Part shown: one piece after another, positions 20,880-60,363 of the stretch
How the letters are laid out: each line of letters begins with the position of its first letter
Position numbering within the stretch: the first letter of the stretch is position 1
Notes under the pieces: model-generated
Databases searched by the model: none
Told to the model about the DNA's origin: nothing
Seen by the model: only the letters and a program-made list of their open reading frames with translations
Origin: a virus
Virus record (IMG/VR): IMGVR_UViG_3300032770_000003
Span: 32,001-96,000 of that record
DNA length: 64,000 nt
Direction: 5' to 3' (one strand)
Made by a program: the position numbers and the translations under genes

Positions 20880-21386
20880 TCAGCCGCAACCCTGATCTGT
20901 TGCGGTGACTTCATTCCATGTAAGGTAATTTACAATCTTGGAGATCGCCGTTTGCCCTACTCCAAACTCTGCAGCAAGCACAGACTGTAGAGCACCTTCC
21001 GTGAATCGACGACGGATCTCCTCAACAGCCTTTCTAGTCAGCTTGCTTTGTGGGTGTGCGTCCCCTCGATTGTAGTGACTGGCGTGGCGGTGCTTTCGCC
21101 ACATGTCGTACATGTTCAGACTGTAGTCTCCAAGAAAGAGATGCTCAGGACGAACACACGGAGGAGTATCGCAAGTATGTAACACCAACATCCCATCCGG
21201 AATCGCCCCAAAAAAGTACTCCCAAGAAACACGATGCGCTTGAAGATGCCGGGTCCTCCCAGCTTGCGTTATCGTGTAGTGGCCATAGCCTTTGCGAAGC
21301 TTCGCAGCAGACCACAACCAGCAGCCATCCGTAAACTTAACCTTGTCCCAAAACCGGGCAGATCCCACAGGTAATGAGCGCAACAT
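20880..21386 (-). CDS. free-standing HNH homing endonuclease with C-terminal HTH
   Basis: RFWDKV...CWLW...GYG...AHRVSW...VLHTCD.P.CV.PEHL.LG...N; SKLT...V.EIR...LA.EFGV; ATG overlaps RNR stop (TGATG). Confidence 0.9.
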   Translation of the reverse strand: MLRSLPVGSARFWDKVKFTDGCWLWSAAKLRKGYGHYTITQAGRTRHLQAHRVSWEYFFGAIPDGMLVLHTCDTPPCVRPEHLFLGDYSLNMYDMWRKHRHASHYNRGDAHPQSKLTRKAVEEIRRRFTEGALQSVLAAEFGVGQTAISKIVNYLTWNEVTATDQGCG

Positions 21387-24300
21387 CAACCACACCCTTG
21401 TGACCAACCACAGGTTCGGCAGGTAAGACAAGCACCGGCTCTCTGCGCAGGATTCCCACATTGACCACACACAAATCCGCTGGTCGGCTTGACCACCGCT
21501 TGCTCCTGTGTGTTGGCGATGATCTTCACCGCCGCTGCCAGCTCATCCACCTGCTCTTGGTTCAGCTGTGCTTCGCTGAACTCCGAACCCAGCCAGCGGA
21601 AGAGGTAGTCAAGCGGTGATTTGGCGAATCGTACGGCAGCGTACTCAGTCATGCCTGCTGGCTCGAAAGACGTGTACGAGAACTTGTCCACCAGCACCTC
21701 AAGCGGTACCCCGTACTGCAGGCACAGCGATGTCAGCACCCCGACGGCGTCCATCAGGCCCGAGACTGTCGAGCCCTCCTTGGACATCTTGATGAAGATC
21801 TCGCCTGGCTTGCCGTCGCTATAGAGCCCAACGTGGATGTACCCTTCGTGACCGCCGATACTGAACTTGTGCCGGTGAGACATCACATCGGCCGGCAGCT
21901 TCTTCCGCGTCTGCAGCGGTACCGGAGAGGTCTCGGAAGGCGCTGAAGCTGTCTTGCTCTGCAACGGCTGCGTGCGCTTGGAACCGTCACGGTACAGCGC
22001 CACCGCTTTGAGACCCTTGCGCCACGCCAGCTGGTACAGATCGCTGATCTGCTGCTCCGTCGCATCGTTCGGGATGTTGCACGTCTTCGAGATCGCACCC
22101 GACACGAACGGTTGCACGGCGCTCATCATGAGAATGTGCGCCTGAGGTCGCAAGAAGCGACCTCCGACTGGATCAGGAAAGCTGCTATCGAACACCGGCT
22201 GGTGCCGCACGTCCAGCCCCGGCGCACCTACGGTCGATCCGTGTTCGAGCACGTACTGCGAGATGCCCCCGACCGTTGTCTCATCGTACCCCAGACACCC
22301 AAGCGCACGGATGACCTGCTGGTTCGTCATCGTGAGAGTGCCACCCCCCACCAGTTTCTTGACTTTGATCAGCGACAGCTCCGGCTCGATGCCCGTGGTA
22401 TCGCAATCCATGAGAAAGGAAATCGTTCCCGCTGGCGCAAGAACACTGATCTGACCGTTCCGGTAGCCGTGCCTCGATCCCAGCGCCAAACAGCGAGCCC
22501 ACGCATCTGTGGCTGCATCCGCCAGGGACGCGATCGTGTCGTTGGGCCCGGTGATCGTGTCCTCGGCAAATGAGACCTTTGCTACAGCGTTCTGATGCAT
22601 GCGCATGACGCGCAGCATGTCAGATTCGTTGTAGGCATCGAAGGCGCCCTTGACTTCTGCGATCTCGGCGGAGCGTGCGTACCCACGTCCCGAGAGGATG
22701 GCGGTCACGTACGCGGCTTGGGCGCGAGCTTCGTTCGAGTCGTAGGCCAAGCCCTGGGCCATCAAGAAGGCGCCCAGGTTGCTGTAGCCGATGCCTAGCG
22801 TGCGGTGCCTGCTGCTGTTCGCCTGCATGAGCGGCGTGGGGTAACTGGCGCCGTCGACCAAGATCTCCTGCGCCGTGATCATCACGTCGATCACGTGCTC
22901 GAAGCTCTTGACGTCGACACTCCCATTGTCACGCAGGAACTTGAGCAGATTGATCGACGCCAGATTGCACGCCGTATCGTTCAGGTACATGTACTCGCTG
23001 TTCGAAACAATAGGAGCGTGTTCAAAACCAGGACAAGCAATCCCAAAATTATGAGTGGCCACAACCTCGATGTCATAGACAGACACCGGCATATCCAGTG
23101 ACAAAAACTCAACAGATGCGACCTTATCGTTTACATCAGCACGATGCGCTTCGATGAAGTCGGAGAACTCTGTCCAGCTCATCCCATGAATACGCCCCCC
23201 ATCACGTGAATGCGCGATTGGAATCGAACCAAGCAATCCATGATCCCTAACATGACTGTTCCAGCGCCACACAGTAACTGGTCCAGTGGACTCCAACGCC
23301 TCCCACGCCTCTACCAACACACAAGGTTCTACGCTAATGAAGCGTGGATTTCGGGCACCAGTTGAATGCTCTGATTGGTGGCTTCCGATGGTTGTTAATT
23401 CATAGTTCGAGAGACGATCATCTGTTGCGTCATTGTTTCGATGATGAACCTGCATCCCTTTTGGAATAGACCCATTCACTTGTTCCCACAGCCAACGGTT
23501 GAACCACTCAGTTCCGTTTGCTGAAGTCTCAGTTACGCGATGATTGATTGTCCTGCGATTGTTTCGCTGAACATTACGAGTAAAACTCAGCTTCATGAGC
23601 CGCATACCTGGCTTCAATCGCTGCGCTTCAACAGATGAACCATTGCGCAAATACCAATGATGCTCAGGTGTACACGTAAACTGTAAACCCCGCTCAGTCG
23701 TAACCTTAACTAGTGATGTAGTTTCACCAGCTTTCCAAGCTTTTTTGATTTGTTTCGCCACGGGTAGGCGTGTCTCGAAATCATAGGAGAGCGCCAAAGG
23801 CAACTTCTCCATGTCTGCAAGTTGACCAATCGGTATACGCCCTTCACTAGTCTCCACCAACGTCTCCCCTACAAAACAGCAAGGATTCGACGCCTCGATC
23901 CTGCCGTCAGTGGGGCAGGTGTGCCAGCGGTTGATGGTTGTGTCGAACTGCAGTCCTGGGTCACCGCAAACGTGAGCGGCTTTGCAGATCTCTTCCCAAA
24001 GCATGCGTGCTTTGACGGTTTCGAGCACCGCCGTCTTCCCATCACGAGCCATGAGGTTCCAGTCGGCGTCGCTTTCCACCCGTCGCATGAACTCGTCAGT
24101 AACGCGCACACTGTGATTCGCGTTTTGGAACGGCACTAGCTGATAAGCACCCCACCGCGCTCGGAAGTCGCCCTCGAAGCCAGCGTCGATGAGCGCATGA
24201 GCCGCTTTCTCACTCTGCGCCTTGCTGCGGATGAACTCCAGAATATCGCCGTGGTCGATATTCAGAATCGCCATCTTGGCCGCTCTTCGTGTCGTGCCAC

Positions 24301-25015
24301 CGCTCTTGATCGCGCCCGCGTTGAAATCGTCCTTGGCAATGAAGGGCACTGGACCCGATGCCATCCCACCACCAGAGAGACCTTCACGCGAGCTACGCAG
24401 CTTGGAGTAGTTGACCCCGGAGCCACTGCCACCTTTGTAGAGACGTCCTTCGATCTCCGCCAATTCCAAGATCGAGGTCATTGTGTCTTCGAGCCCAACT
24501 ATGAAGCACGCTGAACATTGCTCAGCACGAAGTGCACCACCCGATGTGCCTACGTTGAACCAGACCGGTGAGTTGAAGGCGGCTATCTGGTGCAGAAGGA
24601 TGTAGCTCAGCTCGTCTCGAAAAACTTCATGAGCCGCTTTCGCACCATTCGACTTGACGTCGGGGAAGTATCCCAGCTCCACCCCCCAGCGTGCGATCGT
24701 CCCAGCGACACGACTGATCATTTGCCGGACGCTGGTCTCACGAACCTTCGTGTCGAGAGACGGCACGTACCGGAAGTACTTCTCCGCGGTGACCATGGCG
24801 CAGTTCTGAGACCAGGTCGCGGGGAACTCCAGATTGTGGCCACGGAAGACCACCTCACCATTCGGCTTCGTGATCTCCACCGTTCGGTGTTCCCACTTCA
24901 CTGTGCTGTAGACATCAGCCTCCGGCGAAACGAACTGCGACAACACAGTCAGCATCAGCTGCTTTTGATCGACCGGAACACCAGCACTCGAAGTACCAAA
25001 GCCACGCAGCTCCAT
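21386..25015 (-). CDS. nrdJ: class II (adenosylcobalamin-dependent) ribonucleotide reductase with C-terminal TSCPD/Zn domain, intein-containing
   Basis: FNSPVWFN, QCSACFI, SGG.TRRAAKM, SNPC|SEY, ACNLASINL, APAGTISF, SGAISKT, YRDGSKRTQPL; start at MELRG. Confidence 0.95.
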   Translation of the reverse strand: MELRGFGTSSAGVPVDQKQLMLTVLSQFVSPEADVYSTVKWEHRTVEITKPNGEVVFRGHNLEFPATWSQNCAMVTAEKYFRYVPSLDTKVRETSVRQMISRVAGTIARWGVELGYFPDVKSNGAKAAHEVFRDELSYILLHQIAAFNSPVWFNVGTSGGALRAEQCSACFIVGLEDTMTSILELAEIEGRLYKGGSGSGVNYSKLRSSREGLSGGGMASGPVPFIAKDDFNAGAIKSGGTTRRAAKMAILNIDHGDILEFIRSKAQSEKAAHALIDAGFEGDFRARWGAYQLVPFQNANHSVRVTDEFMRRVESDADWNLMARDGKTAVLETVKARMLWEEICKAAHVCGDPGLQFDTTINRWHTCPTDGRIEASNPCCFVGETLVETSEGRIPIGQLADMEKLPLALSYDFETRLPVAKQIKKAWKAGETTSLVKVTTERGLQFTCTPEHHWYLRNGSSVEAQRLKPGMRLMKLSFTRNVQRNNRRTINHRVTETSANGTEWFNRWLWEQVNGSIPKGMQVHHRNNDATDDRLSNYELTTIGSHQSEHSTGARNPRFISVEPCVLVEAWEALESTGPVTVWRWNSHVRDHGLLGSIPIAHSRDGGRIHGMSWTEFSDFIEAHRADVNDKVASVEFLSLDMPVSVYDIEVVATHNFGIACPGFEHAPIVSNSEYMYLNDTACNLASINLLKFLRDNGSVDVKSFEHVIDVMITAQEILVDGASYPTPLMQANSSRHRTLGIGYSNLGAFLMAQGLAYDSNEARAQAAYVTAILSGRGYARSAEIAEVKGAFDAYNESDMLRVMRMHQNAVAKVSFAEDTITGPNDTIASLADAATDAWARCLALGSRHGYRNGQISVLAPAGTISFLMDCDTTGIEPELSLIKVKKLVGGGTLTMTNQQVIRALGCLGYDETTVGGISQYVLEHGSTVGAPGLDVRHQPVFDSSFPDPVGGRFLRPQAHILMMSAVQPFVSGAISKTCNIPNDATEQQISDLYQLAWRKGLKAVALYRDGSKRTQPLQSKTASAPSETSPVPLQTRKKLPADVMSHRHKFSIGGHEGYIHVGLYSDGKPGEIFIKMSKEGSTVSGLMDAVGVLTSLCLQYGVPLEVLVDKFSYTSFEPAGMTEYAAVRFAKSPLDYLFRWLGSEFSEAQLNQEQVDELAAAVKIIANTQEQAVVKPTSGFVCGQCGNPAQRAGACLTCRTCGWSQGCG
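23000..23878 (-). mobile_element. intein in RNR active-site loop (293 aa) carrying an HNH endonuclease
   Basis: NPC|CFVGETLV...CTPEH...VHHRNN...DDRLSN...VYDIEV..THNF...IVSN|SEY; AT-richer than flanks. Confidence 0.92.
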
Positions 25016-25028
25016 CAGAGTTCCCCTT

Positions 25029-26303
25029 TCAAAGCTCGTTCGCGTTCTTGAGGCGTTGATAAGTCTTGTTCTGGCGCAGCCACTTCGTATCGAAGTAGGC
25101 TTGTGCCTGATCACCCTTGGCGAAGATTCGGAGAATCTCCTCCTCCGACTTCTGGTGAACAGTCATCAGACGCTTGAGTGTGCGCTCGCTGAACGCGTAG
25201 CGAACAGCAAGAGACACCTCCGGCGCAGCACGGGTCTGCCCCACGATCGGTGCCTCAGGATCAACCGCCCCCGCTGCGATCTCAGCTTGGTAAGCGCGCA
25301 CGCGCTCGATCGCATTGAACCGACTTGGTGTCACGCCGATCAGCTCCCAGATGCGGGGCTCACGCAGAAACCAGCGATCGAACCAGAAAAACTGGGCGCG
25401 CACGAAGGTCTCACACGAGACCCCTAGCTCATCAGCCAGCTCTGCCGCTCTGAGAAAGCACGTGTACTGCTGATTCCCGGGTGAAAGGAGCACCGTCGAA
25501 TTCGGCACCTTCCAGCTGTTCCGGTACCAGCGCAGGTGTACGTTGTACGTCTGGGACATCGCATAGACCCGTGCACGGTCCGCGCTGTCAGCAAGCCGAA
25601 CGTTGCGCTGTACGGGCGCACGGGACGCACGTATCAGGTCTTCGATGGAAGCGCGCTGAAAGCTGGCACCATTTTCGCTACGCGCGCGTGCACGCGCGCG
25701 CGAGAGATCACGGTCAAGAAGACGTTGGGTCTCAGGGTCCGGGATGTTGGGGACCCTAGTCGCCAATCTCGCCGAGTGACCTTCGGCTCCGTTCGCTCTG
25801 CTGCCCTGCGGGCAGCTCCGCTCCGGATCCGAAGATGCGGTACCACGCATCATTTTAATTCCCGACGAAGGAGCGGCTAAAGTAGCATTTTCACTAGGAG
25901 CATTTTCACTTGACAGATCCTCGGTGACCCCCCCTATGGCTAACGTAGCACTATTATTGGGGTTATCACTGACCGTATGTGTTAAGGTAGCATTATCATT
26001 CGGGTTTTGTTCATTCACAGTTTTAGGATTCATAGCGTCATAGTACTGGTTGTTGACGCACTTTGTGCCGCTAGCAGTCAACTGAACCAGGGGACGTCCT
26101 TCGGGATCCTTCTCGCGCTCACGGAAGTACCCCAGGTAGAGTCCCCACTCCATCACCTGCACCACCTGTCGTGGGTGGCACTTGATGAGCCGGGCGATGT
26201 CGCTACAACCGAAGACCACCGCCGGGCCCCAACGTCTCAGGCCGAGAGTTTTGAAGAGTGACTCCAGGCGTACTTTCACAGGCGCAGGACATAGCTCAAG
26301 CAC
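25029..26303 (-). CDS. putative replication initiator (N-terminal winged HTH, low-complexity linker, RARAR motif, helical C-terminal domain)
   Basis: AGGAGG RBS before GTG at 26303; HTH-like SDIARLIKCHPRQV...; linker encoded by AT-rich direct repeats; lies between SF2 and DnaB helicases. Confidence 0.6.
   Translation of the reverse strand: MLELCPAPVKVRLESLFKTLGLRRWGPAVVFGCSDIARLIKCHPRQVVQVMEWGLYLGYFREREKDPEGRPLVQLTASGTKCVNNQYYDAMNPKTVNEQNPNDNATLTHTVSDNPNNSATLAIGGVTEDLSSENAPSENATLAAPSSGIKMMRGTASSDPERSCPQGSRANGAEGHSARLATRVPNIPDPETQRLLDRDLSRARARARSENGASFQRASIEDLIRASRAPVQRNVRLADSADRARVYAMSQTYNVHLRWYRNSWKVPNSTVLLSPGNQQYTCFLRAAELADELGVSCETFVRAQFFWFDRWFLREPRIWELIGVTPSRFNAIERVRAYQAEIAAGAVDPEAPIVGQTRAAPEVSLAVRYAFSERTLKRLMTVHQKSEEEILRIFAKGDQAQAYFDTKWLRQNKTYQRLKNANEL
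25882..26000. repeat. four 14-bp iteron-like direct repeats inside the initiator gene
   Basis: GTAGCATTTTCACT (25882), GGAGCATTTTCACT (25897), GTAGCACTATTATT (25945), GTAGCATTATCATT (25987). Confidence 0.7.
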
Positions 26304-26437
26304 AAGGTGCCTCCTAGCTAAGCACATGAAACTACAGGGTTATCCACCGCTGAGTAGCTTCCCGAGAGATCCACCATACAGACCCCTCGTGACAAGAGTC
26401 AACGCTGTGAAACATCTCCGTGACTCTTCAGGGTTTT

Positions 26438-27366: not shown

Positions 27367-27369
27367 CGG

Positions 27370-27819: not shown

Positions 27820-27822
27820 TGT

Positions 27823-30213
27823 CTATCTCCACACAGGGACAAATGACGGCGTACCGTCGATGTTGATAAGCGACCAACCAGCTTGCGCTGCTGAGGCAGG
27901 TCCAGACGCTCCGATCGTGCCAAAGGTTGGCGTACTGCCACCACCGTTGGCTACCAAACCGTCATAGCGGAAGACACCATTATCAATCCACAAGGAGTAG
28001 GGTGCAGTAATGGTGCATGGGCCTGCACCAACACCCGAAGGTGGACCGGCGATGTACACAGTCGCCGCAAGGTCTACTGTCAATGCGCTCGCCGCTGAGT
28101 AGCTTGGAGCACGAAACGAAACCATGTTCACGCCGGTCGCGGTCGTGATGTGTGTGCTCCCAGAGAGCGTCAGTGTGGCGGCAATGACGTCGATCCCATT
28201 CCATACGGCGCTGCTGGACGACGCCACAGTCGCGGACGTGTTGAACTGAACGTTACCACCAGAGGCGACGGCCAGCGCGATTCCAGTCGAGGTTAGTTGG
28301 ATGGTGGTTGAGCTGAACGCTAGTCCGATGAGGCTGTCCTGGACCGCGATGGCAGCAACGCCGCCGTAGCCCGATGTCGCCGGACTCCAGAGGTTGATTG
28401 AACCGGAAGACGGCTTGATGTAGATGGCCGTGTTGCTCCACAACGCAGTCCCGCCTGCCAGAGCACCGGCTGCCCAATCGTTAGAACTGACTACGTACCC
28501 AACACCGCCCCTAGCTGTACCGCTTGAGTCACGCAACACCATGCCGGTTCGAGCCGTACCCGAGACCTGCAACTCGATGCCACTTCCCGCCTTAGCGTTA
28601 GTGACGAAAATGGGACTGACGGTGGATGAGACTCCTTGAACCCATAGAGCATAGGGGTTGGTGAGCGATGCAGAACCGGAGACGGTTGGTCCTCCGATTA
28701 TCGCCATGGTTGCTGCATAGTCTACAGTCACGGAACTGGAATCCGTGATTGTCGGTGCTCGCACCGTAACCATATTGAGACCGGTTGCTGTCGTAATGTG
28801 TGTGGTACCGGTCAAAGTCAACGTAGCGCCTAAGATATCGATACCGTCCCATGTAGCGCTCGTGGCACTAGCGACCGTGCGCGAGGCATCCGCACGCAAA
28901 AGCGTCGTCGCCACAGTGGAGACGTTGTTCCCGATCAGGACGTTCGGCGCTGATGTCGAACCTTGTGACTGGACACGAAACACGCTCGTCCCGCCGACCT
29001 GCATATCGAGCAGGTTGTGAACCGCGCCGGCCGTGAGAGCCGTTTCTGTGCCGTTGACGAAGAGGCCCGTGATCGTGCCATTGGCACCACCACTCTGGTT
29101 GATCGTATAGGTCGCGCTGATGTCCCGAAACGCGCCGCTGCCACTCGTGGGAGCAAACGTCGGCGCCAGCGAGATAGCCCGGCCGGTAGTTCCGGTACCG
29201 TTGGACCACGTCCCATAGACGCGAACGCCATCAAGATTCGTGATCGTCGCAGGCCCGGCTCCGCCTCCAGCTGGCGGCCCAGCCACAGCCAGCGTCGACG
29301 ACGTAGTGACCGTTAGTGCCGATCCAGCCGAAAGTGTCGGCGGGTTGACCGTGACGTAGTTATACCCGTTGGCCGTCGAGATCGACGTCGAACCCGTGAT
29401 GACCACGGTCCGCGCCGGCACGGACAGGACGTCGAGCGTGGCCGAGGCGCCCGAGGCATAGGTGAGGTTTTCCGAGACGATCAGCGTCGGCGTGGCACCG
29501 AAATTGAAGACACCCTTCGTCGTGTTCGTCGTCGTATTGAACGTGCCATTGGCACCGCTTGCAATGTCGAAGGTCAGGCCGGCGTTGGACGCGACACCGG
29601 TGACGAGGTCATTCGTGACGTTGTTTATCGCTCGCGTGACTCCGTTCGTGAATGTCAGCACAGGGGAATAGCTCGCTGTCGCGGCCGCAGTCACCCGACC
29701 CTGGGCGTCCAGGGTGATGCTGGCGATGCCAGAGCCGCCGATGAGGCCCGCCCCAGGTCCCACGGCCGGCATGGACACCGTCACGTTGCCGGTCAAGCTG
29801 CCGCCTCCAGATAGCCCGGTTCCGGCGATCACCTGTGTGGTCTGCGGAACGTATGCAGTGGCTAGGGCAACGACAGTATCGGGTGTGCTGTCAGAGACGT
29901 TGAAGTCGGCGCTGAACTTTAGGTTGCTGCGCTGGGCGAGTGTGGTCGTGTTACTCTTGATCGTCGTGTACGCTTGCGTGAGGTAGTCAGTCCCTGGACT
30001 GGCACCGACGAGCGTAGTTCCTGCGCGCTTGACGAGGTTCCCATCAGCGATGGAACCAAAGGTGATCTGTGTTGCGCCAAGGTGGAGCGCAAGAACAGTA
30101 GGATCAGGATAGGTCCCGCCTAAATCACCGCCAGCAGCTCCCGTAGGAGGTCCCCCACCGCCACCTCCGTCGGAGGTGCCATACATTGATTGGCTGTATT
30201 TTTGTGAAGGCAT
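27823..30213 (-). CDS. fibre-like virion protein with three ~75-aa repeats
   Basis: G/T/S/A-rich; GDLGGTYP.PTV and AGTGLSGGG fibre motifs; DAQGRVTAA. Confidence 0.75.
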   Translation of the reverse strand: MPSQKYSQSMYGTSDGGGGGGPPTGAAGGDLGGTYPDPTVLALHLGATQITFGSIADGNLVKRAGTTLVGASPGTDYLTQAYTTIKSNTTTLAQRSNLKFSADFNVSDSTPDTVVALATAYVPQTTQVIAGTGLSGGGSLTGNVTVSMPAVGPGAGLIGGSGIASITLDAQGRVTAAATASYSPVLTFTNGVTRAINNVTNDLVTGVASNAGLTFDIASGANGTFNTTTNTTKGVFNFGATPTLIVSENLTYASGASATLDVLSVPARTVVITGSTSISTANGYNYVTVNPPTLSAGSALTVTTSSTLAVAGPPAGGGAGPATITNLDGVRVYGTWSNGTGTTGRAISLAPTFAPTSGSGAFRDISATYTINQSGGANGTITGLFVNGTETALTAGAVHNLLDMQVGGTSVFRVQSQGSTSAPNVLIGNNVSTVATTLLRADASRTVASATSATWDGIDILGATLTLTGTTHITTATGLNMVTVRAPTITDSSSVTVDYAATMAIIGGPTVSGSASLTNPYALWVQGVSSTVSPIFVTNAKAGSGIELQVSGTARTGMVLRDSSGTARGGVGYVVSSNDWAAGALAGGTALWSNTAIYIKPSSGSINLWSPATSGYGGVAAIAVQDSLIGLAFSSTTIQLTSTGIALAVASGGNVQFNTSATVASSSSAVWNGIDVIAATLTLSGSTHITTATGVNMVSFRAPSYSAASALTVDLAATVYIAGPPSGVGAGPCTITAPYSLWIDNGVFRYDGLVANGGGSTPTFGTIGASGPASAAQAGWSLINIDGTPSFVPVWR

Positions 30214-30221
30214 TGCGTCCT

Positions 30222-30242: not shown

Positions 30243-30246
30243 GACT

Positions 30247-32448
30247 TCACGGGTTACCGTCAGCGGTCACGGGTAAGTTGTCGACAGAGCCAACGACCAA
30301 GCCGAGATTGCCTGACGCCTTGGCTGCGAACCCAAGACGACGCTTCTGATTGGTGGCCGCCACCGGCGGCACAGTGGTAGTGGCAGTACCTGCGGTCCCG
30401 ACTGAGACGTAAGCAAGCGCCTCAGTGGTTGGTGCACCGTCAAAGAGCACCCACGCGGCCTGCTGCGAGAGCGGCGCAAAATACCCTGGGGCGTTGTTCG
30501 AGACAGTAGTGAGGCACGCGTACAGAGGTCCGGATGCGTCTGCTTGGGTATCAGCTCGTGCAGTGACTACTTGCGTGGGTGTTGAAAGCCGAACCAACGC
30601 ACCCACAGGCAACGTACTACCGCTGATGTTGGTAAATATGAAACATGGCGTGGTTACAACGTCACTCACCTGATAAACACGGATGTTGTTCTGCCCAACG
30701 TCGACGACGTTACCGAGTGCTCGGTCACCATAAGCCGAAATCACGTTGCCCAACAGCTGCATATCGCCGCTAGGACCTGTCACGGTGCAGCCATTGAGAA
30801 TAACGGTACTGTCCTGCAGACCTATCAGATTCAATCCGACTCCTGAGCTAACAGTGCCGGCGAGTGCAGTCAGATAAAGGACTGATTTGACACCTGCTGC
30901 AGGACTGGTGGCATCGAGACCGCTGGCGCCTTCGAAATGAATATTGCCGAGTTGGATAGCCGGGACACCGAATAGCTTGATCCCGCTGATTGCCCGCGTT
31001 TGTGGACCGCTTCGCGAACCAATAATCAAGGGGGGATTGATGCCCGGTGTACCGATGTTGAAAACCGATAGAATCGATCCGAGATAGGAACCTTGCCCAA
31101 AGATGCCGTTTTGCAGATTGGTGGAGTCAGAATATTGAATGTCACGCAACCGCAACGTGAAAGGGCCACCGACTGCTGTGTTGGGCCACGCGAAGGCATT
31201 AGCGGTGAAAGAGAACAAACGCACAAACTGGAAACCGCCGTGGACTGCTGCACCGAGTCCAACGGTACGCATGACACCAGTTTCGTCAATGTAGTTTGGC
31301 TGGACGTCGATGCTGAATGCGTCTTGTACAGTAAAATGGTAGTCGTCGTTGGTGGCCAGAGTTGCTACGCCGCAGATGGTGAGCGAGCCGCCCGAAAAAA
31401 GCAGCGCACCACCAGTGGTGTCGTTAACGGCTATGCCGACAGTCGCCCGCAGCGGTACGTTGCCAGTGGGGTTCTGAAGTGGAGCCCCAGTACCGGGGCT
31501 GGCATCGGTCCAGCGCGCAACGGTGACACCGGGGCCCTCGATCCAAAAATCGTCACCGAGGACTGGAGCGTTAGTAATTGCCGCACCGAAGGTGACCTGG
31601 GAAGTGGTGTGGGCTTGTATATTGATGACGACGTTGGCAAGCGCACTGGTAACGTTGCCTTTGAAACGAACCCGATAGGGGATAGCAGCAGGTTCAGTAC
31701 CAAAGGTACCTGACGAAATGGACACCGCGTTAACAGTGCCGCTGCTAGCAGTGAATGAACCATCACCATTCGGGCCAGTGACTTTGGTCTGAAATCCGCA
31801 CAACACACGGTCGGTTGCTGAATTTGTCAGATCGGTCGAGCCCCGGCGCACGAACCGCCGATAGCCACGCACGCCCGTGAAATCGAAAACAGATGCTGTT
31901 ATGCCGTCCGCATCGAGATAGACGGCACCAGCTGCGCGTGGCTTAATCAGCAACACACAGTCACGGTCGTTGCCCAGAGCCGGAAGGATCTGCATCAGAC
32001 GGTCGCGTGTCTTTATAGCCAGACCAGTCGGCACCAGTGTCGAACCAGCTGCTGCATCGACGTAACCGGTATTCGAATCATTGCCACCGTCGTAGTCGAG
32101 TAGAAAGTAACGAACTAGCGTCGATGACCAAGTGGCCAACATGTTTGTCGTAATCGGACTGGCTAGTGTACCGGTTCCGCTAATTGGAAATGCAGTGTGT
32201 TGAGAAGTGTCGCAAGCAAGCGGAGAAGCGACACTACCGGCTCCAGACAACGGGCTATTGACAGTGAGAGAAACCCGTAACGGATCACCACTGGTTCCTG
32301 CACCGAAAACAGGATCGTGTTCACTTAGGCCAAGCCCAATCGGTGAAGCGATGCTGCCGTTACCGGTGACAGGATCTGTGGTGTTTACAGTACCACTACC
32401 GCCGCTACCACCCCCGTATGTGCTGGTGCTGTATTTCTGTGATGGCAT
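30247..32448 (-). CDS. fibre/spike-like virion protein
   Basis: N-terminal tandem P(V/L/I)xGxG(T/S)xxxPL repeats, beta-rich body; AT-richer codons. Confidence 0.7.
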   Translation of the reverse strand: MPSQKYSTSTYGGGSGGSGTVNTTDPVTGNGSIASPIGLGLSEHDPVFGAGTSGDPLRVSLTVNSPLSGAGSVASPLACDTSQHTAFPISGTGTLASPITTNMLATWSSTLVRYFLLDYDGGNDSNTGYVDAAAGSTLVPTGLAIKTRDRLMQILPALGNDRDCVLLIKPRAAGAVYLDADGITASVFDFTGVRGYRRFVRRGSTDLTNSATDRVLCGFQTKVTGPNGDGSFTASSGTVNAVSISSGTFGTEPAAIPYRVRFKGNVTSALANVVINIQAHTTSQVTFGAAITNAPVLGDDFWIEGPGVTVARWTDASPGTGAPLQNPTGNVPLRATVGIAVNDTTGGALLFSGGSLTICGVATLATNDDYHFTVQDAFSIDVQPNYIDETGVMRTVGLGAAVHGGFQFVRLFSFTANAFAWPNTAVGGPFTLRLRDIQYSDSTNLQNGIFGQGSYLGSILSVFNIGTPGINPPLIIGSRSGPQTRAISGIKLFGVPAIQLGNIHFEGASGLDATSPAAGVKSVLYLTALAGTVSSGVGLNLIGLQDSTVILNGCTVTGPSGDMQLLGNVISAYGDRALGNVVDVGQNNIRVYQVSDVVTTPCFIFTNISGSTLPVGALVRLSTPTQVVTARADTQADASGPLYACLTTVSNNAPGYFAPLSQQAAWVLFDGAPTTEALAYVSVGTAGTATTTVPPVAATNQKRRLGFAAKASGNLGLVVGSVDNLPVTADGNP

Positions 32449-33279: not shown

Positions 33280-35745
33280 CTAGATGCCCACGCTGATCAC
33301 GAAGCAGGCTTCCGCCTTGTAGGTCTTGAGCCGCTCCAGCGAGTGCCTGAGCAGCCACTTGTGGGAGAAGTTGGCGAAGTCGTAGACCAAGAGCCGGTCC
33401 TTGCCTTTGTTCGCGCGTAGCCCGCGGCCGACACGCTGGAGGAGCCGGATCTTGGCCTTGCCTCCCGCACACAGGATCAGGACATCAATGTTCGGGACAT
33501 CGACCCCTTCATCGAGGATGGGGGTGGCGACGAGGATCGAGATCTTGTTCTTGGCGAACTGATCCAACACTTCGAGGCGCGTGCGCCCCCTGTCCGTTCC
33601 CGTCAGGTACGCCCAGGGCTTGTCGCTGTACTTCTTGAGCAGCGCCGCCAGCGCTGCTCCTTGCTTCGTCTTGTCCACCAGCATCAAAACCTGGTCACCC
33701 TTGCGGGCATGCTGGATCGCTTTGGTCGCTGCCTTGGTGTTCAGATGTGGGTTCTCGACGATCCCTAGCTTCTCCACCTCTCGAAAGGAGAGCCCGGACG
33801 GGATGATCGGGGCATGTACCTTCAACATCTCGACGTACGGGGGGACGGAGATGCCACGGTCCACCAGGAGCTTGTTGGAGACCTCGTAGAGCACGGGACC
33901 CGTCTGAGCCAGGAGCCGGAGGTCGGCGCCGTCTGACCTGTCCAGCGGCGTCCCTGACATGCCGAAGCGGTAGTAGGCAGGGATTTGGGACAAGACGTCG
34001 TAGTGCGTGTCGCTGGCCGCGTGGTGCGCCTCGTCAGACCACACGAGCTGCCAGCGCGGCAGCATGGCCTCCACCTCCGGGAGCTTGAGCCGGTTCGCGA
34101 GCGACGCTGGCGTAGCCACCGTGATCCAAGCACCCAGCCGGTACTCACTGTCCGCGATAAAACCGATGTCTTGCTCACGTATCCCAAGCCGTAAAGCGAA
34201 GCGGGCGACGGTTTGGTAGACCAGGGTCATGCGGTCGACCAAAAAGAGCGTGGGCAGCGCCAGGTGCTTGGTCACTGCGATCGCCACCTCGGTGTTGTGG
34301 GTTACTGTGAAATCACCCAACAAGAAGCGACCATCACCCTCCAGAGTGAAGCCAGCATAGGGCCCGAACCCCACGGGCTCCACACGAAAGCCAACATGCT
34401 GCCACTGCCTCTTCGGTCGCGCGTGCTTCCGTTTTAGGCGCAGAGGCAGCACTTTGGTGTCACCGATGAGAACCAGTTTCCAGTACGTGCGTGGCTTGCT
34501 CCACCATGCAAGACAAACTTTTTTGGCTCTGATCGAGGCACCGAATCCCAGTGATCGAGCTAGAAACGCTAGATCATCTACCCATGCCCGTTGTTTGAGG
34601 ACGAGTTCGATGTTGCACCCGTCGGAGTAACCATCACCATCGATGAAACCGGCGAGGAATGCTTCTCGTTCTTGTCGGGTACCTCGCAAGTACCGATCTG
34701 GCAGCCGCTCACCACTACCGTAGATGGTACGGAGCTTGTTCAATAAGCTGTGAGGATCCCCTGCGGTATTCTCTGTGATGAACGTACTACTGCAACGGTC
34801 CTCTGGACGTCTCACATGTGAGGATTGCCCAGCAGATAAAGCTACTTGTGCGATTGCATCCTGAATTTCTTTGTCAGGCTTTGTGATCTCTATTACTCCG
34901 AGATCTTTGCGCCCATCAGCGTACCAAATACCAAGAAGCCACGGGTCAACCGGAACAGGGTCTTCTGGCGCTTTGAACTCCACTCCCGCACGGACCAACC
35001 GACTCAACCGTCGACGATCCTTGGTCCAGCTCAAAAACTCGTCCAGAGACACGTCTACGACTGCTTCTGCCTTTGGGTCAAAGATGGTCAGGACATGTAC
35101 CGAGTTGCATTCGAAAGGCTCGCCAGCCCGCTTTGGTGTGACGCGATACATTTGTGCCGCACCGTCACAAGTGCTGGTCACGCGTCTCGGCTCGCTGTCC
35201 GGGCCCATCAAAAGGTCACCAACGCGGACCTGCGCGGCGCGAATGACGCGACCGTCGTAGAGGAGCACAGGCGTGTTCGGGTGCAGACACTTTCCACCGT
35301 TTGTCGCTATGCGTAATATGCCCTTGCGGCCCGCGACCAACGCTTTCGCTGCTTCCAGCTGGTAATCGAAAACGCCTTGGCCGAACTTGATGCCCTGCAG
35401 CTCGAAGCCTTTGTTCCCGATGGCTGGACGATGCGTTTCGTTGTCGTCGATGAGCTGGATGTTGCCTTTCGGGTCGTAGAGTCTTAGCTCCTCCAGGACG
35501 AGAGGAGCGAGCCCGGCTGGCATCGAGCTGTGCACCTGATCGAAGAGGTGCTTCTTGCCATCCCAGACCTTGCGCTTGTAGGCCGGGGAAAACATGAACC
35601 CGTCGACGTAGTACGACGTCGCCTTCCGCACAATCTGGAGGGGGAAGTCGCCACTGATGAATGCGCGGTGACCGCGAACCACGATCACACAGTTGGTCTG
35701 TCCGATCGGAACGTGACGCGGTTGTAGCTTGAGCGCGCTACTCAC
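33280..35745 (-). CDS. superfamily 2 (UvsW-like) DNA helicase, intein-containing
   Basis: FDYQ, ATNGGK|T, DEAHH, SGTP, DEGVDVP, QRVGRGLR. Confidence 0.92.
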   Translation of the reverse strand: MSSALKLQPRHVPIGQTNCVIVVRGHRAFISGDFPLQIVRKATSYYVDGFMFSPAYKRKVWDGKKHLFDQVHSSMPAGLAPLVLEELRLYDPKGNIQLIDDNETHRPAIGNKGFELQGIKFGQGVFDYQLEAAKALVAGRKGILRIATNGGKCLHPNTPVLLYDGRVIRAAQVRVGDLLMGPDSEPRRVTSTCDGAAQMYRVTPKRAGEPFECNSVHVLTIFDPKAEAVVDVSLDEFLSWTKDRRRLSRLVRAGVEFKAPEDPVPVDPWLLGIWYADGRKDLGVIEITKPDKEIQDAIAQVALSAGQSSHVRRPEDRCSSTFITENTAGDPHSLLNKLRTIYGSGERLPDRYLRGTRQEREAFLAGFIDGDGYSDGCNIELVLKQRAWVDDLAFLARSLGFGASIRAKKVCLAWWSKPRTYWKLVLIGDTKVLPLRLKRKHARPKRQWQHVGFRVEPVGFGPYAGFTLEGDGRFLLGDFTVTHNTEVAIAVTKHLALPTLFLVDRMTLVYQTVARFALRLGIREQDIGFIADSEYRLGAWITVATPASLANRLKLPEVEAMLPRWQLVWSDEAHHAASDTHYDVLSQIPAYYRFGMSGTPLDRSDGADLRLLAQTGPVLYEVSNKLLVDRGISVPPYVEMLKVHAPIIPSGLSFREVEKLGIVENPHLNTKAATKAIQHARKGDQVLMLVDKTKQGAALAALLKKYSDKPWAYLTGTDRGRTRLEVLDQFAKNKISILVATPILDEGVDVPNIDVLILCAGGKAKIRLLQRVGRGLRANKGKDRLLVYDFANFSHKWLLRHSLERLKTYKAEACFVISVGI
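34294..35289 (-). mobile_element. intein in helicase Walker A (332 aa, LAGLIDADG)
   Basis: GGK|CLHPNTPV...LLGIWYADG...FLAGFIDGDG...FTVTHN|TEV. Confidence 0.95.
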
Positions 35746-46107: not shown

Positions 46108-46859
46108 TACACAATCTCCTTGAACCATGTTTGTGCGATGGCAGCTTTTCGTTCGAGCGCAACAGAAGCTTTCGCATATAGGAGTCTTGCTACGTGAACA
46201 GCTTCAGTGCTTCGGCTGATCGTTATACGATGACAGTTCACCCTCTTGTACTTAGTAACACTCACATCAGTGTGAATAAAAACCTTGAACTGCTCACACA
46301 GTCGGCGTGACCCACACAGCGTAATATTCGGATATAGGTAACCGCGGATCTTGTCTTTCTTCGTAGTCAAACAACCGTCACCGTCGATGACTCCACGCCA
46401 AAAATGACGATTCTCTTGAAGAATGGGAGACGCCGCTTCCTGACCACTCTTACGAGGAACCACACCATAGCTGGCAAGCTTTGCTGCCATCCAGTCAGAC
46501 GGAAACTTGAGTTGCCAGCTTCGTCCATGCTTGGTAAGGGGGTACGTACCCTTCACGAACACCCGGAATTTACCGACGTGCTCCCGGTCTGCACTGGTCA
46601 CGCTGACAACCACCTGTCCACGGTAGCTATCCAACAAGCAGCCATCAGCTAACAAGAACCCAGCCCAGTAGGCAGATACGTCGGTCACGCAGTCAAAGAC
46701 ATGTTCATCGACGAAATGGTGTCGACGATTACCCTGGGGCCGGGGTTCACTGATTCCTTTCCGGATCCAGTATTGACTGAGCTGATACTTCGCCGCCAGG
46801 CTACGTATGGTAGCCCCGGCTTGATACTCTGAGTCGTAGGTTCTGGGGGTAAAGCTCAT
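46107..46859 (-). CDS. free-standing LAGLIDADG homing endonuclease
   Basis: AYWAGFLLADGC and HFWRGVIDGDGC motifs, GVVPRKS, LERK; AT-richer than neighbours. Confidence 0.92.
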   Translation of the reverse strand: MSFTPRTYDSEYQAGATIRSLAAKYQLSQYWIRKGISEPRPQGNRRHHFVDEHVFDCVTDVSAYWAGFLLADGCLLDSYRGQVVVSVTSADREHVGKFRVFVKGTYPLTKHGRSWQLKFPSDWMAAKLASYGVVPRKSGQEAASPILQENRHFWRGVIDGDGCLTTKKDKIRGYLYPNITLCGSRRLCEQFKVFIHTDVSVTKYKRVNCHRITISRSTEAVHVARLLYAKASVALERKAAIAQTWFKEIV

Positions 46860-49461: not shown

Positions 49462-49473
49462 TACGTCCTTCTC

Positions 49474-52074: not shown

Positions 52075-52077
52075 GGA

Positions 52078-53952
52078 TTACTTGTTGGCCATCACCGTGA
52101 ATGAAGCGTTGCCGAGTGCGAAGTACGGAACGCCGGTAAAGGCATCGATTCCTGAGCCGATCACCACGCCATTCACAGGCGGTGTCAGACCGGTATTGCC
52201 GATCTCGACGGTGAGCGCCTTGAGAAGGATTTCGACTGGGCTGCTGACCGTGACCTCGCCTGAGTTGGCCGTTACGCTGACGTCCGATCCGGAGAGCGTC
52301 GCTGAGCTTCCTGCAGTGGCGGAGAGCTTGCCTGACGGTGCCTGAATGGTGACGTCGCCCGTCTGGGCGATGATCTTCACGACCGCGCCGGCTATCAGGT
52401 CGATCTCGTCCTTGGTGAAGCGGCAGACGGTGTTGGTCGTGCTCCGCTGCTGCTGGACAGGCGGATTCTGATCCCACAGGAAGTCCGGTTCAGCAGGGTC
52501 CCCATAGACTGACGGGTTCCAGTTGAACTCCAGCTGGCGGGTATCCTTGACCGTGACACGGATGTCCCCACCGTCCTGGATAGCCTGACGCTGCCCCTGC
52601 TTGAGCGGCTGGTTCGCTTCGCTGGTGTCGACGAGGACGGTGCCCTTGGAGGTGATCGCAAGCCGAGTTCCCTGGAAGCGCTTGACCGATCGGCGTCCTT
52701 GCTGAAGGGTGCCAGCTACTCCCGCGGTGGCCGGATCCGCTGAGTTCGCAGGGTGGGGCCACCACGCCAGCATGAAGGGTTGGTTGATCCGTCCGCCGAT
52801 GAATGACACAACGCAGTTGTGTGAAAGAAACCCATTAGCTATAAAGGTGTGTGTAGACGTCTGTAGTGCGACTACTTTCTGAATGCCAACGTCTTGAATG
52901 CTAAGAATGGGTACTCGTTCACTCTTCTTGCCGTGAACAACTGCGCCATTCCATAATTCACGTCCACGCAACAATAAACGTTTTGGTCTAATAGACCCAA
53001 GAAGTCTGAGACTCGGGCGTCCAGGCCCAGTCAGTTTGTATCGGAGACATTTTGAGTTAGGCACACGACGACTGACCTGACCACTTCCCCACACGAAGTT
53101 ACGCTCACGCAGCAGCTCAAGTACATGCTCTAGGACTACTCCGGGATTCTGCCCAAATCCCACACCACTACGGAATGGCAAACCACCAACCCAACCTTCA
53201 CCATCAAAAAAGCCAGCCAGATATCCAGCATCGTATGTCGTATCTACTTCCCAAGGCTCGATAGCATAAGATAAGTAATCACCAACCTGCAGTGTCTCAG
53301 CAGTCAACCATTGACGTACGCCAGCCTGGTATTCGATATTGCCGTAAGGACGTCTAGCAACCCACATGTGATCTCGACTACAAATGAGATCACCTTTTTC
53401 GGTTTTAATTCGTAGACACGGCTTTTCAATAATCTTCGTAGCCTGTACGATCGATGATCTGAAAGCTGTTTTTTGTGAGAGGCTTTCATCAAAACCAATC
53501 AATTCCTCACCCACCTTGAGCTGCTCGGCTGACCTCCAAACAAGATCAGCCCCTAATATTTTAGTGCCAAGTGCCACACAGAAGTCTCCGTCGAGCTTTG
53601 TCTTGGAGACGTCTTGCATGCTGTTGGTGATCTGGGCTTCGTCGATCGCTCCGCTGACTCCCTTGGGCAGCTCTTCGCTGTAGTTGTCGTAACCGGTGCT
53701 GCCCCGCGGGAGCACGACCACGTTGCCCAAGATCCACGGGCTGTCACTGCCATCGTTCAAGACCAGCACGCGGGCTTCGATCTGTGAGCCACGCCCATCA
53801 TGGGCAGCGTTCTGAGAGCGATTCGTCGTCTCGTCAGACGCATAGACGGCCAGGACGATCCCGAGCACGGGATAGTGAATGTGCTGGTGGCCGTAGTCTT
53901 CACGCTGGAAGCGGAGAGCCCCTTGCGTGACTGTTCCTGATCGACTGGGCAT
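52078..53952 (-). CDS. baseplate central spike (gpV/gp5-like OB fold + beta-helix), intein-containing
   Basis: LGIV..V...GDF[intein]CVVSFIGG....PF OB-fold motif; C-terminal V.I.A/T repeats; position after hub. Confidence 0.8.
   Translation of the reverse strand: MPSRSGTVTQGALRFQREDYGHQHIHYPVLGIVLAVYASDETTNRSQNAAHDGRGSQIEARVLVLNDGSDSPWILGNVVVLPRGSTGYDNYSEELPKGVSGAIDEAQITNSMQDVSKTKLDGDFCVALGTKILGADLVWRSAEQLKVGEELIGFDESLSQKTAFRSSIVQATKIIEKPCLRIKTEKGDLICSRDHMWVARRPYGNIEYQAGVRQWLTAETLQVGDYLSYAIEPWEVDTTYDAGYLAGFFDGEGWVGGLPFRSGVGFGQNPGVVLEHVLELLRERNFVWGSGQVSRRVPNSKCLRYKLTGPGRPSLRLLGSIRPKRLLLRGRELWNGAVVHGKKSERVPILSIQDVGIQKVVALQTSTHTFIANGFLSHNCVVSFIGGRINQPFMLAWWPHPANSADPATAGVAGTLQQGRRSVKRFQGTRLAITSKGTVLVDTSEANQPLKQGQRQAIQDGGDIRVTVKDTRQLEFNWNPSVYGDPAEPDFLWDQNPPVQQQRSTTNTVCRFTKDEIDLIAGAVVKIIAQTGDVTIQAPSGKLSATAGSSATLSGSDVSVTANSGEVTVSSPVEILLKALTVEIGNTGLTPPVNGVVIGSGIDAFTGVPYFALGNASFTVMANK
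52816..53580 (-). mobile_element. intein in baseplate spike (255 aa, one LAGLIDADG motif)
   Basis: DGDF|CVALGTKIL...CSRDH...YLAGFFDGEG...VVALQTSTHTFIANGFLSHN|CVV; markedly AT-richer. Confidence 0.92.
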
Positions 53953-58264: not shown

Positions 58265-58266
58265 GA

Positions 58267-58824
58267 CTACTCACGCCCCAAGATGTCGACCCAATCAGTG
58301 CTAGGAATCCCGCTGCCTAGTAGCTTCTTCCGCAGCAGCTCCTGCTCTTCGCGGCTCCCGTGAGCTGCGTACTTGCTCGCGAGACGAGGATCCGAAGGTG
58401 GCACTGGTGCTTTCGACTGCTGCGGCACTGGTGATTTCTTTCGCTTCTCGCGCTCCTTCTGCAACCGCTCCTTGGCACTCTGGGAGAGCCCCTCTTCCAG
58501 ATCGGGCGTCAAGCCTTGCTCCAGCTCGCGCTCCCACTTGTCCAGCAACTCATCACCCGTTTCCTCGAAGTAGAACTGCCCATCCGCTTTGTTAAAGACC
58601 CGACGCGCCTCATCGGGATGTTCGGAGTAGTAGTCCTCGTAGAACTCCACGAGGAGTTCAGGCATGGTCGCCTGCTGCGCGAGACTATGCGTCCAAGGCA
58701 GACGATACTTTTTGACCCACCACCGGCGTAGGAGCACTTCCAGTGTTGGCTTGCGCAGGTTGAGCGACGCCTTCTTGCGGGCGTACTCCGTCAGATCCTT
58801 GATCGGCTGCTGGTCGTCGGCGAC
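58267..58824 (-). CDS. tail assembly chaperone, frameshift-extended C-terminal part
   Basis: +1 frame open from 58845 with GC3-rich codons from GTC GCC GAC onward; RRWW.KKYRLP motif; no good start of its own. Confidence 0.7.
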   Translation of the reverse strand, partial: VADDQQPIKDLTEYARKKASLNLRKPTLEVLLRRWWVKKYRLPWTHSLAQQATMPELLVEFYEDYYSEHPDEARRVFNKADGQFYFEETGDELLDKWERELEQGLTPDLEEGLSQSAKERLQKEREKRKKSPVPQQSKAPVPPSDPRLASKYAAHGSREEQELLRKKLLGSGIPSTDWVDILGRE

Positions 58825-59176
58825 TTTTGTAGGAGTTCTCGAACTTCATCACCTCCGCGTACACCGCGCGTACGATCTCGATGTTGGTGATGTCTTCGAG
58901 CTTGAACCAGATCGGCTTCTGCATGAGGCAGATTTCGAGATGCGCAATCATCCCGTTCAGCCACTCAGTCTCCTCATCGATGCCTTGTCCAGTAGGGGCA
59001 CCGTTGTCGTCACGGACGCAGTACATCCCGCCGCAGAGCTGCGTCTTCTTCACCCCCACGGCGCCGATGTCTTTGATTGACATGCGCCGTGTGGTGAAGG
59101 TGCCTTGCAACCGTGTACCCGTGTCCTCGTCAACAATGTCGATCTGGAACGTGTGCACGTTGTTAGGCGTCGCCAT
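58685..59176 (-). CDS. tail assembly chaperone
   Basis: GTFT.RR.SI.D...A.LE.....P.WF..FENSY; between tube and tape measure. Confidence 0.8.
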   Translation of the reverse strand: MATPNNVHTFQIDIVDEDTGTRLQGTFTTRRMSIKDIGAVGVKKTQLCGGMYCVRDDNGAPTGQGIDEETEWLNGMIAHLEICLMQKPIWFKLEDITNIEIVRAVYAEVMKFENSYKSRRRPAADQGSDGVRPQEGVAQPAQANTGSAPTPVVGQKVSSALDA

Positions 59177-59229
59177 GGTTACCCCGCTGTCTTTATCCAC
59201 TGACTCTGTGGTCAAAAACCTTAATGAAA

Positions 59230-59661
59230 TCAGCCACCTGCAGGATGTTCAAACTCGTCCCGTAACCTGATCGTAACGAACGTCACGTTCTCTGAGACGA
59301 TGCCCCGGGCGGTGATATCGAAGGTGTGCTCCTGGCACTTGCACGACTCGAACTGAGCCATGGTCTCACCGGTGAGACGGTCCTCCACTGAGCACGTCAG
59401 ATCACCGCTGGTCAGGATGTTCTCTTCCGTGGGGAAGATCCCGAGTGCCTTGAGCGATGACCCGATCACGCGGAAAACCTGCGCGTTCAGGGTGCAGCGG
59501 TAGGCCACCGGCACGAACTCCCGAACTTCGAGCAGGTCGAGCACATCCACAGGTTCGTAGTCGATTGACTCAGAACCTGAGACGCCTCCAGCAAACCCAA
59601 CGACCGTGCCGTCAATTTTTAGACGCGACCTGGCACCGCTGAACACGAATGGAGCTGCCAT
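59230..59661 (-). CDS. tail tube protein
   Basis: SGAR..LKIDG..VG...VSGSES...EPV..L......EFVP..Y; GAGGAG RBS before ATG 59661. Confidence 0.85.
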   Translation of the reverse strand: MAAPFVFSGARSRLKIDGTVVGFAGGVSGSESIDYEPVDVLDLLEVREFVPVAYRCTLNAQVFRVIGSSLKALGIFPTEENILTSGDLTCSVEDRLTGETMAQFESCKCQEHTFDITARGIVSENVTFVTIRLRDEFEHPAGG

Positions 59662-59662
59662 C

Positions 59663-60314
59663 TCAACTTGCTCCTCTTTGTTTGAAAGGGCGCCCACCAA
59701 GGGTAAGCGCCTCCATTACATTCCAACCACGATTGATGCGTGACTTGACTGTGTTGTAGTCAACATCGAATTTTTCAGCCGCATCGGATAAGCAGCAGCA
59801 TTCTGACTCCGTCGACTTCTACGTAGAGATTGCGCTGCTTGTTGCGGTTCTGCTCCCGCATGGTGGCCCAGCGGCAGTTCATCGGGGTGTAGTCACCGTT
59901 CACGTCGATGCGATCGATGGTGTGCTTGGGAGAAGGCTTCTTGCCCATGTCGGCGAAGAAGTTCTCGAAGCTGTCCTTCCATCGGTCGCAGACGCGGATC
60001 CCACGGGCGCCATAGTCCAAGTAGTGCTCATCTGTTGTGCAGTAGCACCGGGCCTTCATCAGACGCCAGGATTTGTACTCCGGACTCCTATGCATCCCGT
60101 GCTTGCGATTGGTGCCGTTAATTCGGTTAAAGTTCGCTACCTGCTTACCCTGACACTTAACACACTGTGTGGAATCACCGCTGCGGAGGCTTCCGATGAA
60201 GACCTCTTTCTCGGTACCGCAAGCACACCGACAGACCCAGTGCGAAGGCTTCACACCGAGTCTGAGCGCGGTCCATTTGCCGAAAGACTGCCCCGTGAGA
60301 TCGAGTCGCTGCAT
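59663..60314 (-). pseudogene. HNH homing endonuclease split by a +1 frameshift near 59790
   Basis: DLTGQ.FG.WT, CRCACG, W..MK.RC, YG.RGI.VC.RW..FE.F..DMG, TIDRID..G.Y.P.NCRWAT..EQ..N; C-terminal HTH (AAEKFDVDYNTVKSRINRGW..MEALT) lies in the +1 frame. Confidence 0.8.
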
Positions 60315-60321
60315 GAGCGAC

Positions 60322-60363
60322 ACAGTATCCAAGAGCACCTCTCGGTTCAAGATATCTTGAACC
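60322..60363 (-). promoter_or_regulatory. promoter and 20-bp perfect palindrome upstream of the HNH gene
   Basis: GGTTCAAGATATCTTGAACC (60344-60363) overlaps the -35 of TTGAAC-N17-TACTGT; ATG follows 7 nt after the -10 (leaderless geometry). Confidence 0.5.

Follow-up and report, generated by a model that had tools for sequence, protein, structure and literature searches.

We analyzed a stretch of 64,000 nucleotides (hereinafter the window), which comprises bases 32001-96000 of the 171,494-base uncultured-virus record IMGVR_UViG_3300032770_000003, and focused on the free-standing homing endonuclease genes that it carries at the very ends of conserved phage genes. The window derives from a phage with a contractile tail and a G+C content of approximately 59%, whose replication and tail genes in this region lie on the minus strand; the gene complement of the whole record (G000), including sheath, tube, baseplate and terminase genes, marks it as that of a tailed phage. 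Positions are those of the window unless given as G000 positions, which refer to the full record; L numbers denote loci, and G002 is a related phage record. Genes were identified through profile matches from Pfam, NCBIfam and PHROG, and the hidden Markov model (HMM) searches were extended to the whole record. Three genes in the window, all on the minus strand like the genes that they adjoin (their host genes), are predicted free-standing endonucleases that combine a recognizable nuclease domain with a DNA-binding module, based on matches to PF13392, PF14528 and PHROG endonuclease families and on C- or N-terminal helix-turn-helix motifs. They are separate open reading frames (ORFs) between complete host genes, and intein motifs were not found at their ends. 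An earlier sequence-only reading of this DNA had claimed that all three abut their neighbors with overlapping or nearly overlapping start and stop codons, and this proved correct: the joints are TGATG at nrdJ, TAATG at baseplate J and a one-base gap at the tail tube gene.

The first of these genes, HNH1 (20880-21386), codes for a 168-residue HNH_3 endonuclease with a C-terminal helix-turn-helix (PF13392, 1.4e-10; phrog_1872, ~1e-26 to 2e-26). It follows nrdJ (21386-25114), which encodes a class II ribonucleotide reductase (NCBIfam NF005122, 1083 bits, with Pfam support), and its ATG overlaps the nrdJ stop codon by one base. Both genes end in QGCG followed by a stop codon: the working copy comprises the last four codons and stop of nrdJ itself (21386-21400), while the second, here termed the stranded copy, lies in frame with the end of HNH1 (20880-20894). 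Third positions differ in all four codons (CAA GGG TGT GGT vs CAG GGT TGC GGC). The C-terminus is GCG or GCA in all 22 of the closest nrdJ relatives, and in three loci in which the nrdJ end is empty (L096, L098 and L099) a small conserved gene comes directly after nrdJ; the same gene comes after HNH1 in our record. Given these endings and this downstream neighbor, the stop codon of HNH1 occupies the former position of the nrdJ stop, with the insertion point four codons ahead of it. None of the HNH1 homologues exceeds ~50% identity, and the GCG ending is present in none of the other 119 homologues listed.

At baseplate J the insertion is found at the 5' end of the host gene. A free-standing LAGLIDADG endonuclease of 250 residues (46107-46859; PF14528; phrog_4645, 2e-29) precedes the baseplate J or wedge gene (44275-46107; PF04865, phrog_6). 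The endonuclease gene begins with MSFTPRTY, 5 bases past the stop codon of the upstream baseplate gene, and baseplate J begins with MAFTPRTF, 752 bases beyond the LAGLIDADG start. Hence, the first 8 codons of the LAGLIDADG gene (46836-46859) constitute a stranded baseplate-J start and the first 8 codons of baseplate J (46084-46107) a second, working copy; the two differ at 8 of 24 bases, and both residue differences in the stranded copy occur in natural orthologues. As homologues of the LAGLIDADG protein have 10-17 unrelated residues ahead of the helix-turn-helix motif, its first 8 residues are host rather than endonuclease sequence, and the insertion point lies after baseplate-J codon 8. The LAGLIDADG stop codon overlaps the baseplate-J ATG, and an AAGGAG Shine-Dalgarno site for baseplate J (46116-46121) is located within the 3' end of the endonuclease gene. 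In 31 relatives examined from IMG/VR, the baseplate-J start lies 0-5 bases past the upstream stop codon, exactly at the position of the LAGLIDADG start here, and none of them has an endonuclease gene ahead of it; a second copy of the baseplate-J start motif was found in none of 148 related loci. Relative to L001 the net insert is 752 bases. Longer baseplate-J matches in L005 and L027 were considered as inserts and rejected, as they represent an extra domain. The sequence-only reading had ascribed a duplicated terminal peptide to two of the three junctions, and these are the two: the QGCG-stop of nrdJ and the first 8 codons of baseplate J.

The third gene, HNH3, is of the phrog_374/3377 type (59663-60371; phrog_374, 1e-59) and precedes the tail tube gene (59230-59661; phrog_985). 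It is broken by a one-base frameshift near 59800 (59790-59810), in a CTGCTGCT run: the main frame (59775-60371) corresponds to phrog_3377 positions 4-107, and an out-of-frame helix-turn-helix tail continues at positions 108-140. The frameshift points to decay of the endonuclease gene or, alternatively, to an error of assembly. The TGA of the tail (59663-59665) stands one base ahead of the tube ATG (59661). Homology to the closest relative, L069, ends near 60393 and restarts at the tube ATG, and the tube start is empty in 27 relative loci. The ancestral ribosome-binding context GACGGAGG (~60375-60382), which precedes the tube ATG in relatives, now lies ahead of HNH3, and the HNH3 tail contains a new Shine-Dalgarno sequence for the tube, GAGGAG (59671-59676). 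The head of HNH3 was inspected for remains of the tube start, and none were found. Based on this arrangement, HNH3 appears to be an ordinary abutting endonuclease gene that has captured the translation signals of the tube and is in decay. An HNH3-type gene is also present in G002 (141199-141931; L128), directly after the sheath gene, that is, in the same tail module at a different site.

The extended searches recovered two further instances of a duplicated terminus elsewhere in G000. An HNH_3 gene (G000 108329-108856), whose ~20 start residues resemble the start of the head-maturation protease, is lodged at the start of the head protease gene (G000 106650-108338; L100), which restarts 10 bases ahead of the HNH stop codon. 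The endonuclease gene sits behind the conserved upstream region of the protease, the insertion point lies after about protease codon 19, and the protease start is empty in 9 loci. The second instance is a truncated and frameshifted HNH remnant after a TROVE/vWA-like gene (G000 ~14100-14510; L101), the last 14 residues of which match the end of that gene; its insertion point lies about 17-19 codons ahead of the stop, and the remnant appears to be a fossil of the same architecture. Thus, G000 holds four instances with a duplicated terminus, two in the window and two outside it, two of them 5'-end insertions (baseplate J and protease) and the other two 3'-end insertions. As three diverged HNH_3 genes and one LAGLIDADG gene are involved, the claim that unrelated nucleases share one architecture is upheld across the record. 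The sites at baseplate J, tube, nrdJ and protease are empty in relatives, indicating sporadic presence, and different stages occur side by side: intact (HNH1, the LAGLIDADG gene and the protease-side HNH), frameshifted (HNH3) and truncated (the TROVE-side remnant). Six or seven other HNH genes of G000 are without duplication, being located in a tRNA-region cluster, after the capsid gene, near a portal-like gene and at 19 kb.

Around the protease, GCATCGCTCCA, then TAAAGGGAGG, then a complementary CCTCCC are conserved ahead of the protease start in L108, L110 and L113; in G000 this motif (L100 about 3358-3420) is found ahead of the HNH gene instead. With regard to the tRNA-region cluster, two HNH genes lie in an apparent tRNA gene cluster at G000 25000-26400, and an HNH gene of the PF01844 type at ~23.6 kb.

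In light of these junctions, we are fairly confident in proposing that the genes in question are free-standing homing endonuclease genes lodged in coding sequence without a splicing element, within the terminal 4-20 codons of conserved genes. The displaced terminus remains where it originally lay in the genome and is read within the endonuclease ORF. Consequently, in 5' insertions the endonuclease inherits the upstream signals and start codon of the host gene, and in 3' insertions it runs into the old stop codon of that gene. On the inner side of the insert the terminal codons occur again, and it is this copy that completes the host gene. The two genes meet in TGATG, TAATG or a 10-base overlap, and in the 5' insertions the Shine-Dalgarno sequence of the host gene is found inside the 3' end of the endonuclease gene.

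The terminal similarities were evaluated by means of a gene-anchored scan of adjacent same-strand gene pairs, which took over from a frame-blind 10-residue self-similarity scan that was too noisy. Apart from full-length paralogues and a few pairs that were of low complexity or probably spurious, only the baseplate-J and protease pairs scored high; that of nrdJ ranked fourth among C-termini (p ~0.005). Among 28,680 non-adjacent gene pairs of G000, one pair had the same last 4 residues and one had at least 5 of residues 2-8 in common, a rate of ~3.5e-5. By our own count, duplication was present in 4 of 11 endonuclease-like genes versus none of ~225 other adjacent pairs (Fisher p = 2.6e-6). These figures bear directly on the notion that we are dealing with ordinary intronless homing of the kind attributed to the T4 Seg and Mob enzymes, in which the genes would be intergenic, cutting would occur at a distance, and the terminal similarity would be a coincidence or an artifact of gene calling. 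The free-standing endonuclease genes of T4 do have overlapping stop and start codons and translational coupling, as in mobE/nrdA (PMC2988022), and the tube-side HNH3 fits such a scenario. For the set as a whole we regard it as improbable, since it has to accommodate four independent terminal matches, at a random-pair rate near 3.5e-5 each, and these matches all lie in the reading frame of the endonuclease and fall precisely where the host gene ancestrally started or stopped.

Outside the endonuclease genes, strong terminal similarity is confined to two tandem paralogue pairs. The genes at 27823-30213 and 30247-32448 (796 and 733 residues) have a common start, MPSQKYS, and those at 60545-61111 and 61057-61440 lie between sheath and tube.

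We then compared the two copies of each terminus. Among the codons that specify the same residue in both, 20 of 26 differ synonymously, a degree of divergence similar to that between orthologues of different phages. Not a single residue is changed in the stranded nrdJ copy, and at the protease the copies correspond to two length variants, the stranded one being as in L110 and L111 and the working one as in L108. Had a copy drifted without constraint until its synonymous sites were saturated, its protein sequence should be gone as well; the simplest reading is that the two copies represent termini from two diverged phage lineages, joined when the endonuclease moved. The competing view, in which only the endonuclease gene moved and an illegitimate or microhomology-mediated insertion duplicated the target codons locally, with subsequent drift of the copies, draws on the shortness of the repeats (15-60 bases), on the location of the protease junction at a short Phe/Arg-Phe motif common to host and endonuclease sequences, and on the fact that the donor lineage could not be identified; under it, the diverged copies may persist because diverged repeats resist recombinational deletion. 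What renders this view rather unlikely is that, with synonymous change close to saturation, the stranded copies of nrdJ and baseplate J have retained orthologue-typical residues although they no longer serve the host protein, and that the length variant in the stranded protease copy differs from that of the working copy and occurs in natural orthologues. The divergence of the copies also speaks against an assembly or sequencing artifact. The contig does come from an uncultured virus, and a sequencing error could account for the single-base frameshift in HNH3, but an artifact of assembly is hard to reconcile with diverged rather than identical repeats at four sites, with a gene order as in relatives and with coherent reading frames; we consider it highly improbable.

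Returning to the proposal of terminal insertion with a replaced gene end, we posit a mechanism in which the enzyme would cut endonuclease-free alleles within the conserved terminal codons, and repair templated by an occupied genome would transfer the endonuclease gene jointly with the replacement terminus, as a single cassette. Occupied alleles would be protected from cutting by their split site and by a replacement copy that differs at most synonymous positions. The two copies resemble orthologous termini from separate, diverged phage lineages more than a duplication that arose recently on the spot. In general terms, we lean, with some reserve, toward the view that phage homing endonucleases have here a splicing-free route into coding sequence, in the form of a mobile cassette of endonuclease gene plus replacement gene end, and that the 5'-end form would hijack the promoter, ribosome-binding site and first codons of the host gene, giving it a new start coupled to the stop codon of the endonuclease.

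Several observations weigh against this proposal. No duplicated peptide was detected at the tube junction, which leaves one of the three in-window cases without the duplication. Of the five related phage records that were assembled and searched by HMM for endonuclease genes, four yielded such genes, and terminal duplication was present in 0 of the 6 detected; the duplication is accordingly to be seen as a frequent outcome in this genome and not as a rule. A close homologue (more than ~50% identity) of any of the endonucleases at the same site in another genome was not found, and for this reason we infer, rather than observe, the movement of the cassette as a unit. Protein searches with the endonucleases returned only homologues of at most ~50% identity, none of which has the host-derived terminus; pattern-based IMG/VR searches gave no relatives of the LAGLIDADG gene or HNH1, and a search with the nrdJ C-terminus was likewise empty. 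At the DNA level the window has no relatives in the phage collection. Relatives at the protein level are numerous in IMG/VR and in metagenome contigs (up to 68% identity for baseplate J and up to 89% for the tube), and the metagenome scan gave a nearest relative of 68% and none closer. The identity of these relatives at third codon positions is 0.3-0.5, too diverged to tell which copy is native or where an imported tract ends. Scans for promoters and terminators gave nothing firm.

Base composition also belongs on this side of the balance. The sequence-only reading had regarded the adjoining ends of the host genes as AT-richer than their bodies and took this as a sign of recoding. Dips in G+C at third codon positions (GC3) are indeed measurable: the last 30 codons of nrdJ have a GC3 of 0.33 as opposed to 0.67 in the gene body (1st percentile of 97 genes; C-extein alone 0.76), the low stretch being the last ~35 codons (21389-21493); the first 30 codons of the tube have 0.50 versus 0.81 (3rd percentile); baseplate J is lower only in its first 10 codons (0.50 vs 0.74, 8th percentile); and the protease dip is marginal, with only the first ten codons lower. 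However, GC-rich relatives without an endonuclease dip at the tube start (0.58 vs 0.82; 0.42 vs 0.71) and at the nrdJ end (0.69 vs 0.90; 0.66 vs 0.84) too. As endonuclease-free relatives behave likewise, the AT-rich ends are weak evidence for recoding, and we abandoned the GC3 drop as an argument for it after these controls. Most of the effect belongs to the genes themselves, and what the element could contribute is at most the additional depth of the dip at nrdJ. Nor do the copies differ clearly in GC3 (25/44 working vs 30/43 stranded, by a by-eye codon count). Codon GC3 favors a native stranded and a foreign working copy for nrdJ and the TROVE-like gene and not for baseplate J or the protease, with relatives saturated at synonymous sites.

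The nearest known counterpart of this organization comes from fungal mitochondria, in which mobile endonuclease ORFs termed mORFs form 'gene hybrids', as in atp6 of Allomyces macrogynus and atp6, atp9, cox2 and nad3 of Glomus (PMC3630166). In these, a LAGLIDADG or GIY-YIG ORF lies in the 3' end of a gene and an inserted C-terminal piece completes that gene, while the gene's native C-terminus is left behind beyond the endonuclease, frequently in phase with it; the copies are diverged in DNA and similar in protein, and an origin of the termini from two lineages has been argued (PMC3630166). The elements described here likewise have an endonuclease ORF in a terminal coding region and the host terminus twice, one copy completing the gene and the other stranded. 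They differ from mORFs in residing in a phage rather than a fungal mitochondrion, and would work like mORFs without being members of that set. Moreover, the nucleases are of the HNH_3 and LAGLIDADG types; only 4-20 codons are duplicated, far fewer than in mORFs; two of the four cases are insertions at the 5' end, which take the start codon and upstream signals of the host gene; and the endonuclease has an ORF of its own, connected to that of the host gene through overlapping stop and start codons. Thus, of the earlier claim of a recurring class of endonuclease plus gene terminus, the architecture and its recurrence in G000 stand; the tube case does not conform to it, and the general idea was already known from fungal mitochondria. 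The start-capturing 5'-end form is the least documented and was not found in the literature searched.

Among phages, the closest comparison is with the T4 SegF, SegG and MobE enzymes, encoded by free-standing HNH or GIY-YIG genes beside conserved genes, including nrd genes, with co-conversion of flanks and sporadic presence in relatives (PMC2988022). The overlap of start and stop codons, which suggests translational coupling, and the conserved phage genes as neighbors are features in common with this intronless homing. Unlike the genes in our record, those of T4 sit between genes, and their products cut hundreds to thousands of bases away (PMC2988022). A duplicated host-gene terminus is described neither in the T4 review (PMC2988022) nor in a survey of ICP1 (PMC10448857), and full-text searches of the literature found no phage description of this layout. 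As with inteins and endonuclease-bearing group I introns, the insertion splits a recognition site in conserved coding sequence and leaves host function intact; unlike them, the elements described here involve splicing of neither RNA nor protein. Given that the integrity of the host gene is secured by a duplicated terminus, only gene ends can be colonized in this manner.

If our interpretation is right, a homing endonuclease can occupy essential coding sequence without an intron or intein, paying with a spare gene end, which would widen the range of invadable sites. Homing elements would then have, next to introns and inteins, a third niche in the termini of conserved phage genes, and this would drive the formation of chimeric gene ends across phage lineages. 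For annotation, this would account for short orphan peptides at the ends of endonuclease genes. The proposal predicts cutting at conserved terminal codons and mosaic ends in phage genes for structural proteins and nucleotide metabolism, and the presence of intact, frameshifted and truncated stages in one genome makes the life cycle of the element testable.

A shared C-terminus is also seen in G002 (104071-105154; L126:9071-10154), where NAIWNF-stop terminates a 231-residue gene as well as the 135-residue ORF that follows and overlaps it; for the latter, no match to a PHROG family was obtained.

In addition to the three free-standing genes, the window contains four predicted inteins on the minus strand, which agrees with the count of seven homing-type elements in 64 kb given by the sequence-only reading. 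Each insert has an N-terminal Cys, a C-terminal (H)N or Q, a following Cys, Ser or Thr, and a location in a conserved host motif. The nrdJ, helicase and hub inteins have HMM support, and that of PolA was called from its motifs and a split match. The nrdJ intein (23000-23878), which includes an HNH domain (PF14890, TIGR01445, PF13392), starts with Cys and ends with SN followed by Ser, and its GC3 is 0.45 as opposed to 0.67-0.76 in the exteins. A LAGLIDADG intein (34294-35289; PF05203, PF05204, PF14528) interrupts the P-loop of a UvsW-like helicase at GK|T and displays a GC3 dip. Another insert of the LAGLIDADG type, with a weak match to PF14528 (52816-53580), is located in a baseplate hub/spike-like gene (52078-53952); it starts with Cys, ends with HN followed by Cys, and has a GC3 of 0.35-0.43 versus 0.65-0.85 in its flanks. 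This intein is compact, and a virion baseplate hub/spike-like protein is an unusual intein host. The fourth (16546-17457), in PolA, a family A DNA polymerase, lies in the window but outside positions 20880-60363, to which the sequence-only reading referred, and was recognized by a split polymerase match, motifs and a GC3 dip. It ends in Gly-Gln rather than His-Asn, and the next residue is Cys where family A polymerases have Leu (DPN-L-QNIP). The head protease has an intein-like insert as well, which starts with CFPGD and ends with AHN followed by Ser.

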